DNA of 51,285 nucleotides from a phage. The notes below the pieces were generated by a model, which was not told where the DNA came from, did no database searches, and saw nothing but the letters and a program-made list of their open reading frames with translations. The stretch lies in the sequence record PZ445413.1. One strand, given 5' to 3'. The position numbers were made by a program, and so were the translations under genes. This document shows positions 33,429 to 48,999 of the stretch, in pieces; position 1 is the first letter of the stretch; each line of letters starts with the position of its first letter.

Positions 33429-34550
33429 ATGGCTGTACGAAAAATCACCGACGAGCAGTTTATTAAAGCACGCAAAGAGGGGAAAACCTACAAGCAGATC
33501 GCAGAGGAGTTCGGCCTTAATGTTCGCAGTGTCGAGCGTCGAGCGTCACGCCTTGCGCGTTCTGGTGAGACTGAAATTAAAGGCGCTCCAGGTTATGCAG
33601 TTGTGCGCGAGTCTGTTTTAACTCGCGCAAATGGTGAGGAAGTCATGAGATGGACTATCACCAATAAAGACAAAGAGCAATTAGAGGCTCTCATGCAAGC
33701 CGCTATGGATGCTTTCGCAGAGGAAGTGCCACGCTTGGAGCCGCAGCCGGAATCACGCGCTGATTATTCTGAAAGCCTGGCTTTATATCCGATCTTTGAT
33801 ATGCACCTGGGGGCAATGGCTCACAAGCATGAGTGCGGCGAGAACTACGACACCGCAACGGCGGAAAGGGTTATGAATAACTTTTTCGATTATGCAGTTA
33901 GTAAAGCGCCAAACAGTGAAAAGGCGGTGCTCCTGATTGGTGGCGATATGCTTCACAGTGACGGCCTGGAGGCTGTAACACCTGCAAGCGGTCACGTTCT
34001 GGATCAAGATAGCCGTTACGCAAAATTAGTTTACGTTGCAATCCGAGCCACGCGCCGCGCAATTAGCCTCATGCTGACAAAGCATAAAGAGGTTGAGGTG
34101 CAAATCATTGAAGGTAATCACGACCAATCAGGAATGATCTGGCTACGTGCTGCAATGGCGGCGGCATACGAAAACGAGCCTCGCGTAAACGTTGATGTGT
34201 CTCCGCGCGTTGTGCATCACACGCAATATGGTAAAACGTTCCTGGCTTACCATCATGGACATACGATCCGCAAGCCTGAAACGCTGTTGATGATGTGCGC
34301 GGCAGATTGGCGGGAGGATTTCGGAAACTCAAAGAGCATGTATGCGCATGTAGGCCATTGGCATCACCAGACCGTAACAGAAACGAGCCTGGGTATTGTG
34401 GAAGTTCATTCCACTATGGCAGCAAAAGACGCTTACGCGGCGCGCGGTGGTTGGCGATCTCGTCGTCGTGCGGCGGTGATTGTTTACGATAAGGAATATG
34501 GCGAGATTGGTCGCTTCATGTTCTACCCTGAAATGATGGAGATCAAATAA
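33429..34550 (+). CDS. HTH domain - calcineurin-like metallophosphoesterase fusion protein
   Basis: 373 aa; N-terminal HTH-like (YKQIAEEFGLNVRSVERRASR); phosphoesterase-like motifs DMHLG, GGDMLHSD, GNHD, HHGH. Confidence 0.5.
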   Translation: MAVRKITDEQFIKARKEGKTYKQIAEEFGLNVRSVERRASRLARSGETEIKGAPGYAVVRESVLTRANGEEVMRWTITNKDKEQLEALMQAAMDAFAEEVPRLEPQPESRADYSESLALYPIFDMHLGAMAHKHECGENYDTATAERVMNNFFDYAVSKAPNSEKAVLLIGGDMLHSDGLEAVTPASGHVLDQDSRYAKLVYVAIRATRRAISLMLTKHKEVEVQIIEGNHDQSGMIWLRAAMAAAYENEPRVNVDVSPRVVHHTQYGKTFLAYHHGHTIRKPETLLMMCAADWREDFGNSKSMYAHVGHWHHQTVTETSLGIVEVHSTMAAKDAYAARGGWRSRRRAAVIVYDKEYGEIGRFMFYPEMMEIK

Positions 34551-34717
34551 TGAAAGTTCGTTGCATCCGTAACACATCAAAATCTTTACCGTTTATCGTT
34601 GGCGCTGTTTATCGTGCCTTGAAACTTTGTGGTGATTTATACGAGATCCGCGACGGTCAAGGAAGCGCAATCCAGGCACCATTAAACGGACATTATCTGA
34701 CTTTTTCGCCACTATAA
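34550..34717 (+). CDS. small protein, member of KxxC...GKxY paralog family
   Basis: 55 aa; taATG overlap with previous gene; MKVRCIRN...VGAVYRAL motif; followed by terminator. Confidence 0.4.
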   Translation: MKVRCIRNTSKSLPFIVGAVYRALKLCGDLYEIRDGQGSAIQAPLNGHYLTFSPL

Positions 34718-38378: not shown

Positions 38379-38435
38379 TTGTTGCCGCTAATTATAACGG
38401 CAACAATACTACCCTGTTTTAACAAAAAGTGCTAT
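38379..38435 (-). repeat. box cassette with TATAAT in hairpin loop (minus strand)
   Basis: minus ATAGCACTTTTTGTTAAAAC then ttgttgccg-TTATAATTAG-cggcaacaa then aaaggaga-ATG. Confidence 0.55.
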
Positions 38436-40889: not shown

Positions 40890-41083
40890 TAACCAATCTC
40901 CAGAGTTGATGGCGTAACGCCGGACTCGATAAGCCTCCACATTTCATTGCATTTATCGCGCCCATGCTCCTTAATAAATTTTGGCATATCAAGACGGCTG
41001 TTTATGCGATCCATTTGGTTACAGCTTCCGCTCATTTGCACAAGTCGGAAAAACTCGCTGAATTGCTCTTTTGTAAATGTCAT
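40889..41083 (-). CDS. hypothetical protein
   Basis: 64 aa; RBS gaggag. Confidence 0.4.
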   Translation of the reverse strand: MTFTKEQFSEFFRLVQMSGSCNQMDRINSRLDMPKFIKEHGRDKCNEMWRLIESGVTPSTLEIG

Positions 41084-41286
41084 TTTGCGATCTCCTCAAA
41101 GTGATAATTGTCAATTCCAGCACCGCGAATTACATGATCGTATCGGAACAACCACAATTCCAACCCGTTATCGTCGATGATATGCGGATCATTTTCCCAG
41201 CGACCGCGCAATCTGTACTCTTTGCCCTCAGTGAATCGCCAAACGTTCAAATTATCGTTTTCGGCTTTGATGCAGCGTAATTTCAT
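41080..41286 (-). CDS. small protein, paralog-family member
   Basis: 68 aa; MKLRCIKAEN...EGKEYRLRG motif; overlaps neighbours. Confidence 0.4.
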   Translation of the reverse strand: MKLRCIKAENDNLNVWRFTEGKEYRLRGRWENDPHIIDDNGLELWLFRYDHVIRGAGIDNYHFEEIAK

Positions 41287-41507
41287 TATTCACCTTCCAC
41301 AGTTTCAAACACGGTATTGAATGCCAGAAGTTTAAATTTCTTCCCTGGCTCAACCACTGCGATATTCCAGGTAATGCCGCCGTGATATGCAACCATATCC
41401 TCAATATCGACGGTGATTTGTGCGCCTTTCTTGAATAACCCTTTCTCGTGGGTAGCGTCACGTTCGGTAACTACTGTTTCGAATTGGGTTTGTTGTTCAA
41501 AGTTCAT
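41286..41507 (-). CDS. hypothetical protein
   Basis: Start at Met with leader caaccaatcaggagaatcaaacg-ATG; 73 aa. Confidence 0.4.
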   Translation of the reverse strand: MNFEQQTQFETVVTERDATHEKGLFKKGAQITVDIEDMVAYHGGITWNIAVVEPGKKFKLLAFNTVFETVEGE

Positions 41508-41532
41508 CGTTTGATTCTCCTGATTGGTTGAT

Positions 41533-41582
41533 GGGGCTATTATGCCAACTAACCCCGATCCAGTTTTAACAAAAAGTGCTAT
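41533..41582 (-). repeat. box cassette (minus strand)
   Basis: minus ATAGCACTTTTTGTTAAAAC; gggg...CATAAT...cccc; leader caaccaatcaggag. Confidence 0.5.
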
Positions 41583-41857
41583 CAAGCCTTTTTCATTTCA
41601 TCGCTGATGAATTTCAGCACCTGGCGCAAGAAAACCTCGTTGCTAATAGTCGCTGGCAATTCCTCTTTAATTTCTTGCGGGAGGTAAACGTTGCCATGCC
41701 AGGTTAAGTTGTCATAGTTGATGCTGTAGGAGCAAAGCCATTCGCAATCGTTATCAGCTTCCCAAATGCACAGTTGCAGACCGTCGCCGAAATCCTCAAC
41801 AGTCAGATCCAGACCGCGTTTCTTGGCAAAGTTGAAAGTAGTTTTGCTGATGTTCAT
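41582..41857 (-). CDS. hypothetical protein (first gene of leftward early operon)
   Basis: 91 aa; leader cccaatcaggagcaagcgagc-ATG; box cassette upstream. Confidence 0.45.
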   Translation of the reverse strand: MNISKTTFNFAKKRGLDLTVEDFGDGLQLCIWEADNDCEWLCSYSINYDNLTWHGNVYLPQEIKEELPATISNEVFLRQVLKFISDEMKKA

Positions 41858-41898
41858 GCTCGCTTGCTCCTGATTGGGTATCTCGTTTCGATGAAGTA

Positions 41899-41942
41899 AC
41901 TATAGCAAATCAGATCAGATCGCTTTTAACAAAAAGTGCTAT
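41899..41942 (-). promoter_or_regulatory. box-type promoter cassette for leftward early operon
   Basis: minus-strand ATAGCACTTTTTGTTAAAAG, 19 nt, TATAGT; no upstream gene, so the box is not merely a stop-codon context. Confidence 0.45.
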
Positions 41943-42257
41943 TGATGGATTGTGTATAAAACAACCGCTTTGCAGCACCATTGCAAAATCTGAAATGATA
42001 GCCGCATATCGTTGCACATCATGCAAGATAGTGATTGTTGCAGTTTAGACAATAATTAGTGTGAATTTTTACTGATTGTGTGGGGAATGGTGAAACCTGG
42101 TTCGCGAGTGTCAAGTTTTCGCTCTCGCCACGGCGCCTTGTCTCCTCTTGTTCAGGGGTGTTCACAGATTTCTCCGCATTGTTTCCGCGCCGTTTTTCGG
42201 TGTTGAGTAAACAAAATAAACACTATAAATCCTCTATAATACATTGAAATTAAAGTA

Positions 42258-42283
42258 TATTTATTTATATATATCTATTTGTT
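42258..42283. repeat. 26-bp AT-rich repeat, copy 2
   Basis: TATTTATTTATATATATCTATTTGTT identical to 20785-20810; in early divergent control region. Confidence 0.6.
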
Positions 42284-42516
42284 GTTTTTATTGTTCACAC
42301 TGTTTATGGTGGATATGGGATAGTGTCTGGATTGATGTATAGTGATATATGGGTATGCGCTCGCCTGGGTGGGGTGGCTTGTGCGCATCTATATATATTT
42401 AATCCTCCGCAACTCGTTAACAGCGTTAACAGAAAAAAAGACAGCCTGTTTTCAATGACTTAGGCGCTGTTTTGTCTTTTTGTGCGGTTGTAGTCGTCTG
42501 TTAAACAAAATAAACA

Positions 42517-42544
42517 TTGACACGTCGCGCGGCCTGATTATAAT
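42517..42544 (+). promoter_or_regulatory. consensus sigma70 promoter for rightward early operon
   Basis: TTGACA - 16 nt - TATAAT about 30 nt upstream of ATG 42576. Confidence 0.6.
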
Positions 42545-42575
42545 GGCTCCCGAACCAATCAGAGGAGGAATCACG

Positions 42576-43034
42576 ATGGAAGAAAAAACCACGAAAGATT
42601 ATTGCAATTGGTTGCGAGCGCTGGGAAAGCGGCTGGCAGACGGTGAGATTGAGGAGTATCGCCTATCGCTTGATATTCTCGCCAGCAACCACAACGGCGA
42701 TGATTACTACAAGATCACGAAAAGCGTTTCGTATTCCAGGACAATTATCAACCGCGTGCCGGAAGTGAAAGCGGCTGGCACAATCAGCATTAAGGTTGAG
42801 GAAACGGACGACGAGCGGTTTTACGTGTTCCGCCTGAATCGCGATGCAAAGCGTAAGGTGCTGACCAGCGAAGATGTGAGCGCAATCGAACAAAAGGCAG
42901 TGGCAAAAGCGATGCGCGGTTTGCTGCATACCATGCCGAACATTGCAGATTTGAGCGGCGAGAAAGCAGAGGGCGCGCTTATTATGGCGCAGCGTTACCA
43001 GGCAATTATTGGAAATATGATCAAAGGAGAATAA
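42576..43034 (+). CDS. hypothetical protein (first gene of rightward early operon)
   Basis: ATG 42576 after leader aaccaatcagaggagg and consensus promoter TTGACA-16-TATAAT. Confidence 0.5.
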   Translation: MEEKTTKDYCNWLRALGKRLADGEIEEYRLSLDILASNHNGDDYYKITKSVSYSRTIINRVPEVKAAGTISIKVEETDDERFYVFRLNRDAKRKVLTSEDVSAIEQKAVAKAMRGLLHTMPNIADLSGEKAEGALIMAQRYQAIIGNMIKGE

Positions 43035-43037
43035 ACC

Positions 43038-43289
43038 ATGAACCACGCAGACATTCGCAAAGTAGCAGAGCAGATCGTTGAAATCCTGGGCGAACACCGC
43101 CCTAACTCTAAATGCTGGGATCTGATTATCAAAGATGTTCATCACCTGCAACAGCCCCGCGTTCGCCTGGTGTCCGGTGATTTGAATATTGAATATATTG
43201 TCGGATCGCCAGCGCTTGAAACGGCAATGAATGCGCTTATGCGTGAGGGTGAGAAATTCACAGTTGAACCAGTGGAGGGCAAGAAATGA
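43038..43289 (+). CDS. hypothetical protein
   Basis: 83 aa; RBS aaaggaga. Confidence 0.45.
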   Translation: MNHADIRKVAEQIVEILGEHRPNSKCWDLIIKDVHHLQQPRVRLVSGDLNIEYIVGSPALETAMNALMREGEKFTVEPVEGKK

Positions 43290-43606
43290 ACAAATTCAAA
43301 GTAGCGTTAGGCGCAATCCTGGTTGTTGCTGGCGTGGTGATGCTGACTGGTTGCGATAGCGACACCCGCACGCCGGAACATGCACGCATTAGAATGCAGG
43401 TTGAAACAGGAGCAGATCACGACCGCGCGAGTGTGCGCAAGTTAACTGAATTTGCTGATGGCCTGGCGTACAACGACAAGCGCGGGATTTACATCATCAC
43501 CGATAAGCAGACGGGCAAAGAGTACATCGGCGTTTCTGGTGTTGGTATCACAGAAACCGGATCGCACGCTTGCGGCAAGGGTTGCACACGCCAGGACGAG
43601 CGATAA
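43286..43606 (+). CDS. lipoprotein (superinfection exclusion candidate)
   Basis: 106 aa; signal peptide with lipobox LTGC. Confidence 0.5.
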   Translation: MNKFKVALGAILVVAGVVMLTGCDSDTRTPEHARIRMQVETGADHDRASVRKLTEFADGLAYNDKRGIYIITDKQTGKEYIGVSGVGITETGSHACGKGCTRQDER

Positions 43607-48714: not shown

Positions 48715-48760
48715 CACTTTTTGTTAAAACTTCCGCGAGGACATTTGTTAAAGTGTCCTC
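48711..48760 (+). repeat. box cassette
   Basis: ATAGCACTTTTTGTTAAAAC; hairpin gaggaca-tttgttaaag-tgtcctc. Confidence 0.5.
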
Positions 48761-48786
48761 ATTGAAGCGAAACAGAGGAAAACGCA

Positions 48787-48999
48787 ATGAAAATCAAAAT
48801 CACCAAAATCGACACTATCAACGGCGACGGCTCAATCACTCTTGAGCAATGCGGGTTGGTTATCGGGGATGTTCTGGAGGTTGACGGGCATTTCAGCGAC
48901 GGATCTTATTGTGTGATTGCGCCGCGTAACAGCGAGTTTATCAAAGCTGGCGACAATATCAGTGTTAACCATGATGAATGCGAGGTTGTAGAAAAATGA
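48787..48999 (+). CDS. small protein, paralog-family member
   Basis: 70 aa; MKIKITKIDTINGDGS motif. Confidence 0.4.
   Translation: MKIKITKIDTINGDGSITLEQCGLVIGDVLEVDGHFSDGSYCVIAPRNSEFIKAGDNISVNHDECEVVEK

Follow-up and report, generated by a model that had tools for sequence, protein, structure and literature searches.

The 718 bp gap between the leftward and rightward operons of a T1-like phage (positions 41858-42575 of sequence record PZ445413.1) is best read as a composite cis-acting hub, made up of a leftward promoter, a pac region, an iteron-type replication origin and a consensus sigma-70 promoter. We hold this reading with moderate confidence. The stretch of DNA analysed (the window, 51,285 nucleotides) is a complete genome that has been opened at the gene for the large terminase; that for the small terminase (P22 gp3-type) lies at ~50.7-51.3 kb. 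A preliminary description of the window had singled out the gap as its largest non-coding stretch, lying between two operons, and as the likely regulatory hub for early expression. The stretch 41858-42479 is indeed the longest in the window without an open reading frame (ORF) of at least 60 amino acids (the runner-up is 267 bp). The gap is bounded by the start codon of a leftward 91-amino-acid ORF (41855-41857, minus strand) and the ATG at 42576, and both operons diverge from it. The features listed earlier (promoter, box, 26-bp repeat, 15-nt duplicate and tandem repeat) are each present where they had been placed. The idea of a regulatory hub stood as far as the divergent promoters and a conserved repeat are concerned, but it was incomplete: the right ~400 bp has a paralogue 21 kb away, and homologous gaps hold pac ends.

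Each kind of element in the hub is known already, be it the pac site, the iteron origin or the sigma-70 promoter. What appears to be new is the identification of such elements in the Drexlerviridae, the architecture with two modules and a candidate cut site placed to the nucleotide. T1 is a classic T-series phage, and T1-like phages often contaminate laboratories and fermentations and are also candidates for therapy. The analysis yields targets that are defined to the nucleotide. These are a pair of candidate origins and the repeats they contain, a protein that may bind the repeats, and a conserved motif, GGGG..^GTGAAAC, as the candidate place of the cut.

On sequence similarity the window is assigned to the Drexlerviridae (T1-like phages). 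Over positions 41500-43000 it shares 98.9% identity with Escherichia phage vB_EcoS_W011D (Drexlerviridae, Tempevirinae, Changchunvirus; W011D below), and the weaker relatives of this region are T1-like phages throughout. The homologous gap is also the largest in the W011D annotation, after discounting two small, non-conserved ORFs there. Every relative fetched has a gap of 690-725 bp between the same leftward and rightward operons, the longer gap of JK16 being due to a duplication, and nine aligned homologous gaps, T1 and TLS included, have an identical order of blocks. The layout at the syntenic gap is common to Changchunvirus, Warwickvirus, Tlsvirus, an unclassified Salmonella phage, a Klebsiella phage and Hafnia phage Pocis76, and it is also found in T1 (Tunavirinae), MSK (Braunvirinae) and Webervirus. 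Sensitive BLAST searches matched 42180-42524 in about 45 records of Warwickvirus and related phages (~71% identity), where the region is mostly unannotated, and the AT-rich core at ~83% identity in Tlsvirus, Salmonella, Citrobacter and Hafnia phages.

Two paralogous modules

The right part of the gap (module 1, 42138-42545) consists of short repeats arranged around an AT-rich core. The left iteron array (42138-42166, plus strand) has three direct TGTT-type repeats ~10 bp apart (TTGTCTC at 42138, TTGTTCA at 42148 and GTGTTCAC at 42157-42165) and is retained in both modules of eight phages. The core itself (42213-42292) is 80 bp with 13.8% GC and is a candidate DNA unwinding element. Immediately before it stands the first copy of the A-tract TAAACAAAATAAACA (42208-42222, plus strand), and at its start is a TATAAT (42235-42240) that is invariant in nine phages. 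The 26-bp AT-rich repeat of the preliminary description falls within the core (42258-42283) and has an exact second copy at 20785-20810. An iteron, TTGTTCACA (42291-42299, plus strand), abuts the right edge of the core, a position kept in relatives. Next comes a G/T-rich spacer of variable length (42300-42401, plus strand; GC skew up to +0.6), which ends in a second short AT block, ATCTATATATATTTA (TATATAT; 42387-42401, plus strand). Two tandem iterons, CGTTAACAG CGTTAACAG (42415-42432, plus strand), follow in inverted orientation to the left array. Still further right, TTTCAATGACTTA (42450-42462, plus strand) differs by one mismatch from the consensus WATCAANNNNTTR for integration host factor (IHF). 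The same alignment column holds a perfect IHF consensus in module 2 (AATCAATAACTTA, 20955-20967) and in swan01.

The tandem GTTAAC element had been noticed before, and its two CGTTAACAG copies make up two of the three GTTAACAG octamers of the window. It had been called palindromic and suggested as a possible operator. We rejected that candidate, a palindromic operator of a dimeric helix-turn-helix (HTH) repressor: the dyad is not conserved, its symmetry being lost in relatives, and the site lies ~85 bp upstream of the -35 hexamer, neither overlapping nor abutting the promoter. The homologous tandem is GTTAACAG/GTGAACAG in swan01, GTGAACAC/GTGAACAG in TLS, three copies of GATTAACAC in T1 and GGTGAACATGGTAAACATG in module 2. 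At this position relatives have GTGAACA, GATTAACA and the like, so the conserved unit is better described as an asymmetric iteron, the palindromic GTTAAC being particular to this phage. The tandem GTTAACAG element is a conserved repeat that is probably bound by protein. The true palindromes of the gap (TTGCA-N5/7-TGCAA) are elsewhere, at 41970 and 42012.

A second, paralogous module (module 2, 20585-21090, plus strand) lies between a Cor-like lipoprotein gene (minus strand) and an exonuclease VIII gene (plus strand). It contains a box (20640-20658), iterons (20673-20692), an AT-rich core (20738-20817, 13.8% GC), tandem GGTGAACATGGTAAACATG (20920-20938) and a promoter, TTGACT-16-TAGAAT (21032-21059). 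It is colinear with 42140-42475 over 336 bp (62% identity, E = 1e-18), and the global alignment of the two modules scores 54, against 2.6 +/- 1.5 for shuffles that keep the local composition. Module 2 is conserved at ~70% in many Tempevirinae. Modules are present at both positions in T1, TLS and Webervirus KPP2020, and the Webervirus module 2 comes directly after the primase gene. With a profile made from ten modules, precisely two matches each were obtained in the window and in TLS.

No other 80-bp segment of the genome is as poor in GC as the two cores, which tie at 13.8%; the next lowest is at 25%, and the mean is 46% (standard deviation 6%). The same is true of the cores in T1, TLS, W011D and KPP2020, making five genomes with the window. 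The repeats likewise cluster in the modules. Four of the nine copies of GTGAACA/TGTTCAC in the window are in the two modules, which cover 1.5% of the genome (p = 6e-6), and in TLS the count is 4/8. In T1, five of the six copies of GATTAACA are within the first 510 bp, and in KPP2020 the two modules hold 13 of the 17 copies of GTAAGAT, in both orientations around the AT-rich core. The sequence of the repeat differs among genera and the architecture is constant, a pattern that would be expected of a site co-evolving with a specific binding protein.

The duplication in Shigella phage JK16 (MK962751, locus 1440-2440) is a tandem one of ~585 bp. The duplicated segment includes the larger part of module 1 together with the promoter and the DUF7174 gene's 5' portion, and a truncated 68-amino-acid ORF lies between the copies. 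The candidate origin may really have been amplified in JK16, or the duplication may be an artefact of assembly.

A candidate origin of replication

We infer that module 1 is an iteron-type replication origin, one of two in the genome, and consider the chances of this to be about even. The reading draws on anatomy: an iteron origin has asymmetric, phased repeats whose inverted arrays enclose the DNA that melts most readily. The likeness of the repeat to that of P4, the homology of the primase to that of P4 alpha and the position of the Webervirus module 2 behind the primase gene also count for it. Here the repeats are short, asymmetric, clustered and phased (three at 42138-42166, one at 42291 and the inverted pair at 42415-42432), they are enriched in the modules in four genomes, and adjacent to them is the AT-rich candidate unwinding element at 42213-42292, with its 13.8% GC. 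The genome papers of T1-like phages that were consulted report that no origin of replication was found.

In the mechanism we propose, the oppositely oriented arrays of 7-8-nt asymmetric repeats (TGTTCAC / GTTAACAG) that flank the most easily melted 80 bp would be bound by a phage protein that co-evolves with the repeat and bends the DNA, possibly together with IHF. The AT-rich core would then open, and the phage primase and helicases would load. The best candidate for the binder would be the winged-helix-like product of the DUF7174 gene, encoded directly downstream. A second, paralogous origin module would act upstream of the recombination genes. The consensus sigma-70 promoter would drive the rightward genes, and because the leftward and rightward promoters transcribe away from the core, they could leave negative supercoiling behind them and so ease melting (the twin-domain model).

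A wider proposal is that T1-like phages replicate from two paralogous iteron-type origins, with DUF7174 as a small, rapidly co-evolving, stand-alone origin binder for a primase resembling that of P4 alpha. We put this forward tentatively, leaning slightly towards doubt. If true, a "split" P4 ori/crr-alpha system would be found directly beside a precisely cut pac site.

Several points weigh against an origin. The AT-rich core and its flanking repeats could equally be regulatory or architectural. Both modules are directly upstream of consensus sigma-70 promoters, so the repeats could regulate immediate-early transcription. DnaA boxes (TTATNCACA, at most one mismatch) are not enriched in the window (51 vs 48 expected). 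A perfect DnaA box, TTATACACA (41951-41959, minus strand), one of two in the window, lies beside the leftward box, and relatives do not keep it. Nor is the IHF consensus enriched across the genome (5 vs 3.9 expected), and it is a weak feature, conserved in position. Lastly, a tblastn search with alpha residues 264-777, for the P4 alpha helicase and origin-binding domain, came back empty. A DnaA-dependent (oriC-like) origin was rejected, as there is no cluster of DnaA boxes. Cumulative GC skew has a local minimum in the gap; it tracks gene orientation and is not independent evidence.

Comparison with known origins

A close parallel is the ori/crr system of satellite phage P4, in which the alpha primase-helicase binds type 1 iterons. 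The P4 annotation includes an "ori type 1 repeat", TGTTCACC/GGTGAACAG, arranged as GGTGAACAGAGGTGAACAG, which we checked on the P4 record, and the Tempevirinae repeat is nearly identical to it. The forms in the window and its close relatives are GGTGAACATGGTAAACATG, CGTTAACAGCGT(T/G)AACAG and TGTTCAC. The type 1 iteron of P4 is found in both orientations: exact TGTTCACC is at 20921-20928 (minus strand) and TGTTCAC is at 20683, 42159 and 42292. The tandem GT(T/G)AACAG of the window matches P4 GGTGAACAG; this iteron is not shared by T1 or Webervirus. As in P4, the repeats occur in both orientations beside AT-rich DNA and there are two separate cis elements per genome (ori and crr in P4). The phage primase is also homologous to the alpha primase domain: the window primase (gene at 27731-28678, minus strand, Zn-ribbon type) aligns with the N-terminal primase domain of P4 alpha at 23% identity over 255 amino acids (E = 1e-13).

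There are also differences. An alpha-type helicase and C-terminal origin-binding domain are undetectable in the window, so a protein that binds the repeats would have to be encoded by a gene of its own. Other Drexlerviridae genera use unrelated repeats (GTAAGAT, GATTAACA), and the match to P4 may therefore be coincidence. The modules are 21 kb apart in the window, whereas the P4 elements are separated by 4.7 kb. The alpha protein, which combines primase, helicase and origin-binding domain, is absent, with only the primase having a homologue. For this reason the window modules are considered only to resemble the P4 system and not to be members of it.

Iteron plasmid origins (F with RepE, R6K with pi, pSC101 with RepA) are a second comparison. 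No sequence similarity to any plasmid and no enrichment of DnaA boxes is seen, and the repeats of the window are on both sides of the core and inverted. Plasmid Rep proteins have two winged-helix domains, whereas DUF7174 is predicted to have one winged-helix-like domain plus helices. Searches for similarity to plasmids or Escherichia coli chromosomes found none.

Promoter-linked phage origins are known as well, including lambda ori with pR, the T7 primary origin and T4 oriF/oriG. Like these, the modules have an AT-rich region by strong promoters, and transcription would be expected to aid opening. Unlike in these, both promoters in the window face away from the core, so activation would have to be via upstream negative supercoiling, not via an R-loop or a primer transcript. 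A further difference is that the invariant TATAAT at the core edge (42235) is without a recognisable -35. It was rejected as a promoter, since a -35 hexamer is lacking at a distance of 16-18 nt and the promoter scan passes it over.

Candidate iteron-binding proteins

The first rightward gene, DUF7174 (42576-43034, plus strand), is a candidate for the iteron-binding protein, no more. Its AlphaFold2 model (pLDDT 84.7) has a helix-strand-helices-hairpin domain followed by two long helices, and a winged-helix protein is a possible prediction from this model. The divergence of DUF7174 is roughly in step with that of the repeat: clear homologues are found among Tempevirinae, the relation in MSK is weak (E = 1e-5 to the window protein), the T1 homologue is below the Pfam threshold and KPP2020 has no Pfam match.

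Two other proteins were tried as iteron binders and rejected. The first is the small terminase: the protein of the window shares 59% identity with its counterpart in T1, a phage with a different repeat, and 51% with that in TLS, a phage with the same repeat. The second is an HTH protein (28735-29178, minus strand) encoded upstream of the primase gene; it is Cro/YdaS-like with a basic N-terminus. This protein is conserved at 54-65% identity in the window, T1, TLS and Webervirus, where its gene always adjoins the primase gene, across genera with different iterons, and its recognition helix is unlinked to repeat type. More likely, it binds something family-wide, such as the 21-nt box described below.

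The predicted rightward promoter

The rightward promoter region (42502-42575, plus strand) comprises the second copy of the A-tract (42502-42516, plus strand) at the position of an UP element, a -35 hexamer TTGACA (42517-42522, plus strand), a -10 hexamer TATAAT (42539-42544, plus strand) and a ribosome-binding site (RBS) GAGGAGG (42562-42568, plus strand) before the ATG at 42576. The near-perfect sigma-70 promoter claimed by the preliminary description, TTGACA-16-TATAAT at 42517-42544, is borne out, both hexamers matching at 12/12 positions; it is the sole such site within 41000-43500 and lies 31 nt before the ATG. By the consensus definition (TTGACA and TATAAT, 16-18 nt apart, upstream of a gene) this is a predicted consensus sigma-70 promoter, and its TTGACA is conserved in relatives. 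The duplicated segment reported there also exists: TAAACAAAATAAACA at 42208-42222 and 42502-42516 is identical at 15/15 positions, and A-rich tracts are present at both positions in relatives.

Since consensus promoters end both modules, the main alternative to an origin is a purely transcriptional role, which we consider unlikely. The arrays would then be operators or enhancer-like sites at which an early phage protein (e.g., DUF7174, autoregulating) switches both strong sigma-70 promoters, and the AT-rich core would be flexible or curved DNA for looping, without origin function. The IHF-like sites between the repeats and the promoters would suit this arrangement, as would the possible winged-helix protein encoded first downstream of module 1. 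In TLS, only three consensus sigma-70 intergenic promoters were reportedly found by the authors (PMC11447400). We assume that two of the three correspond to the modules. The geometry fits less well, however. The -35 and -10 hexamers are not overlapped by repeats, the nearest of which is ~85 bp upstream and the others 230-380 bp, and the repeats are asymmetric and phased, not palindromic. Consensus promoters do not need an activator. A purely transcriptional role also leaves unexplained why, in all the genomes checked, no other place is as AT-rich as the two cores, and it is at odds with the placement of the Webervirus module 2 right behind the primase gene.

A candidate pac region

The part of the gap between the leftward box and module 1 (41945-42137) is unique to the gap and is missing from module 2, which fits a single pac site per genome. 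We propose it as the candidate pac region of this phage. It contains two palindromes, TTGCA-N7-TGCAA (41970-41986) and TTGCA-N5-TGCAA (42012-42026), the sequence GATTGTTGCAG (42032-42042) and a conserved block, GGGGAATG^GTGAAACC (42082-42097), in which the putative first terminase cut is at 42089/42090. TTGCA/TGCAA is modestly enriched in the zone (6/272 copies in 0.4% of the genome, p = 7e-4). A first cut at 42089/42090, with packaging going rightward, is likely as judged from the sequence comparison below. The terminase would make this cut on concatemers, within a ~200-bp zone and at GGGGAATG^GTGAAACC, and packaging would then proceed rightward; the TTGCA/TGCAA palindromes left of the cut would be candidate recognition sites for the terminase.

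The placement of both the region and the cut follows from two things: pac ends of homologous gaps map there, and three record starts coincide. The T1 reference record starts inside the homologous gap, its first 2800 bp being annotated as terminal repeat. Position 1 of the TLS record, like that of the T1 record, falls in the zone homologous to 41945-42137; the TLS pac was mapped by restriction digests, with the exact base set by a 6-nt resemblance to the P22 pac (PMC11447400). The SU57 paper places the pac of T1-like phages in this untranslated region. For MSK (Braunvirinae), the published PhageTerm analysis gives a forward pac position of 36,862, which lies ~40 bp right of the TTGCA/TGCAA palindrome cluster and ~130 bp left of the AT-rich core. 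The records of XY3 (GTGAAACCTTCC...), PHB17 (GTGAAACCTGGTC...) and Pocis76 (GTGACGTG...) all begin with the base homologous to 42090 of the window.

Some points count against this placement. The exact cut site depends on where the records of XY3, PHB17 and Pocis76 begin; our literature search found no paper describing the termini of these three phages. The T1 and TLS records start ~70 bp left of the homologue of 42090. Two IMG/VR contigs bear the cut motif (n = 2) and neither terminates there. As background, the start of the LL5 record is a synteny convention only, and published genome papers give the pac sequence of T1-like phages as undefined.

The candidate site resembles the headful pac sites of the SPP1, P1 and P22 models, in having clustered short repeats and palindromes by the putative cut; close to it are an IHF-like site and AT-rich DNA that is probably bent. 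The homologous gap carries the first packaging cut in T1, TLS and MSK, and that of the window would do likewise. Unlike in P22, SPP1 and P1, the site is not in or beside the terminase genes; it is ~8.7 kb upstream, as in T1. The recognition sequence also differs in standing: the TLS assignment leaned on the 6-nt resemblance to the P22 pac, and that of the window is only a candidate.

The small terminases of SPP1 and P1 bind repeated, bent DNA around the cut, and by analogy the AT-rich core (with its ATATA repeats) and the arrays could themselves be the recognition site of the small terminase. We think this improbable. It would agree with the pac ends in this gap in T1, TLS and MSK, and the putative cut motif (GTGAAAC here, GTGTTAC in T1) resembles each phage's own repeat. 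According to the MSK paper, Wietzorrek et al. (2006) proposed the five ATATA repeats of the T1 AT-rich core as pac, which favours the core and weighs against the zone to its left. On the other hand, the entire module, including the exact 26-mer, recurs 21 kb away, and the annotations and papers on T1 and TLS give one pac end. The mapped ends are 130-220 bp left of the core and so within the zone for which module 2 has no equivalent, and the divergence of the small terminase is unlinked to repeat type (59% for T1, 51% for TLS, as above).

The predicted leftward promoter and the 21-nt box

The left end of the gap is occupied by a cassette with its leader (41858-41944, minus strand), which had been described as a box-type cassette for the leftward operon. 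The description holds, with TTTTAACAAAAAGTGCTAT at 41924-41942. Read on the minus strand, the cassette consists of a 21-nt box (41924-41944, ATAGCACTTTTTGTTAAAA), a 19-nt spacer between box and -10 with two GATC sites (41913, 41918), an extended -10 TGCTATAGT (41899-41907), and a leader CATCGAAACGAG followed by an RBS (41868-41873). In the window TTTTAACAAAAAGTGCTAT occurs 15 times, against a chance expectation of 0.24, and all copies are aligned with the direction of transcription. Aligned along transcription, all 15 cassettes share the order box-N18-20-(-10)-CATCGAAACGAAAC-RBS, and the -10-like hexamer is often TGn-extended.

This box is the 21-nt intergenic direct repeat aaATAGCACnnnTTGnTAAAA described for TLS, T1, Rtp and Rogue1, which was defined in TLS as lying ~76 nt upstream of the start codon and whose function was left open (PMC11447400). 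The copy at 41924-41944 (minus strand) agrees with that definition, being intergenic, oriented with transcription and 67-87 nt from the ATG at 41857, and the 15 boxes of the window likewise point along transcription, ~70-85 nt ahead of start codons. The authors gave no function, whereas here each copy precedes a -10-like hexamer. Because every copy does so at a fixed distance, each box cassette looks like a promoter, and that of the gap is plausibly the leftward promoter. For annotation, the consequence is that "box" repeats look like promoters. As a speculation, the HTH protein encoded beside the primase gene could be a box-binding factor, since its conservation parallels that of the 21-nt box.

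Several smaller observations concern these cassettes. An inverted repeat of 6-7 bp brackets the -10 or sits in the spacer at the boxes at 38419, 40444, 41566, 43686 and 48711 (also 31699, 39156 and 44243). The stems vary in sequence (GGGGTT..AACCCC, GTTGCCG..CGGCAAC, GAGGACA..TGTCCTC, GCGCCC..GGGCGC), as if a hairpin were being selected for, either at the DNA level or in RNA from read-through. The leftward cassette of the gap has no such inverted repeat. GATC occurs in the spacer of the leftward promoter of the gap in the window (41913-41921, CAGATCAGATC) and also in swan01, PMBT35 and KLB26 (CCGATCCGATCC). Since the phage encodes its own Dam methylase, Dam methylation might modulate the leftward promoter or the nearby pac site. 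Beside the leftward box, Webervirus and T1 have TATTCC/GGAATA repeats (KPP2020 34540-34600, T1 48750-48800), in the form of three copies of TATTCCAC and then an inverted GGAATA, and Tlsvirus has two AGACCGATTGGTCT palindromes at the same spot. The TATTCC/GGAATA and AGACCGATTGGTCT sequences appear to be genus-specific, operator-like sites beside the leftward promoter.

Small ORFs, RNAs and neighbouring genes

That the gap encodes a small RNA or small proteins is very improbable: small ORFs are annotated in W011D, PMBT35 and KLB26 and there is a weak hairpin at 42186-42203 (z = -2.9), but the annotated ORFs lie on different strands and in different frames from one record to another, the ATGGTGAAA reading frame is lost in swan01 and T1 (judged by eye) and the G/T-rich part differs in length. 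Rfam gave no match for the region at a permissive threshold or for the whole window at gathering thresholds, and a search for tRNA and tmRNA found none. A terminator hairpin at 42429-42483 was also rejected, as it is no better than shuffles on either strand (z about -1.0) and its swan01 homologue is unfolded. W011D genes 36 and 37 (window 41910-42165) encode 38 and 48 amino acids, have TTG/GTG starts and overlap the palindromes of the pac zone. The small ORFs of the gap were rejected as genes: they are not conserved as protein, the W011D pair is lacking in other genera, and the annotated ones are probably spurious. In the leftward operon, the second gene (41289-41507, minus strand) matches the Pfam family PF25180, "Phage antiviral trigger protein Gp54" (E = 1.6e-32).

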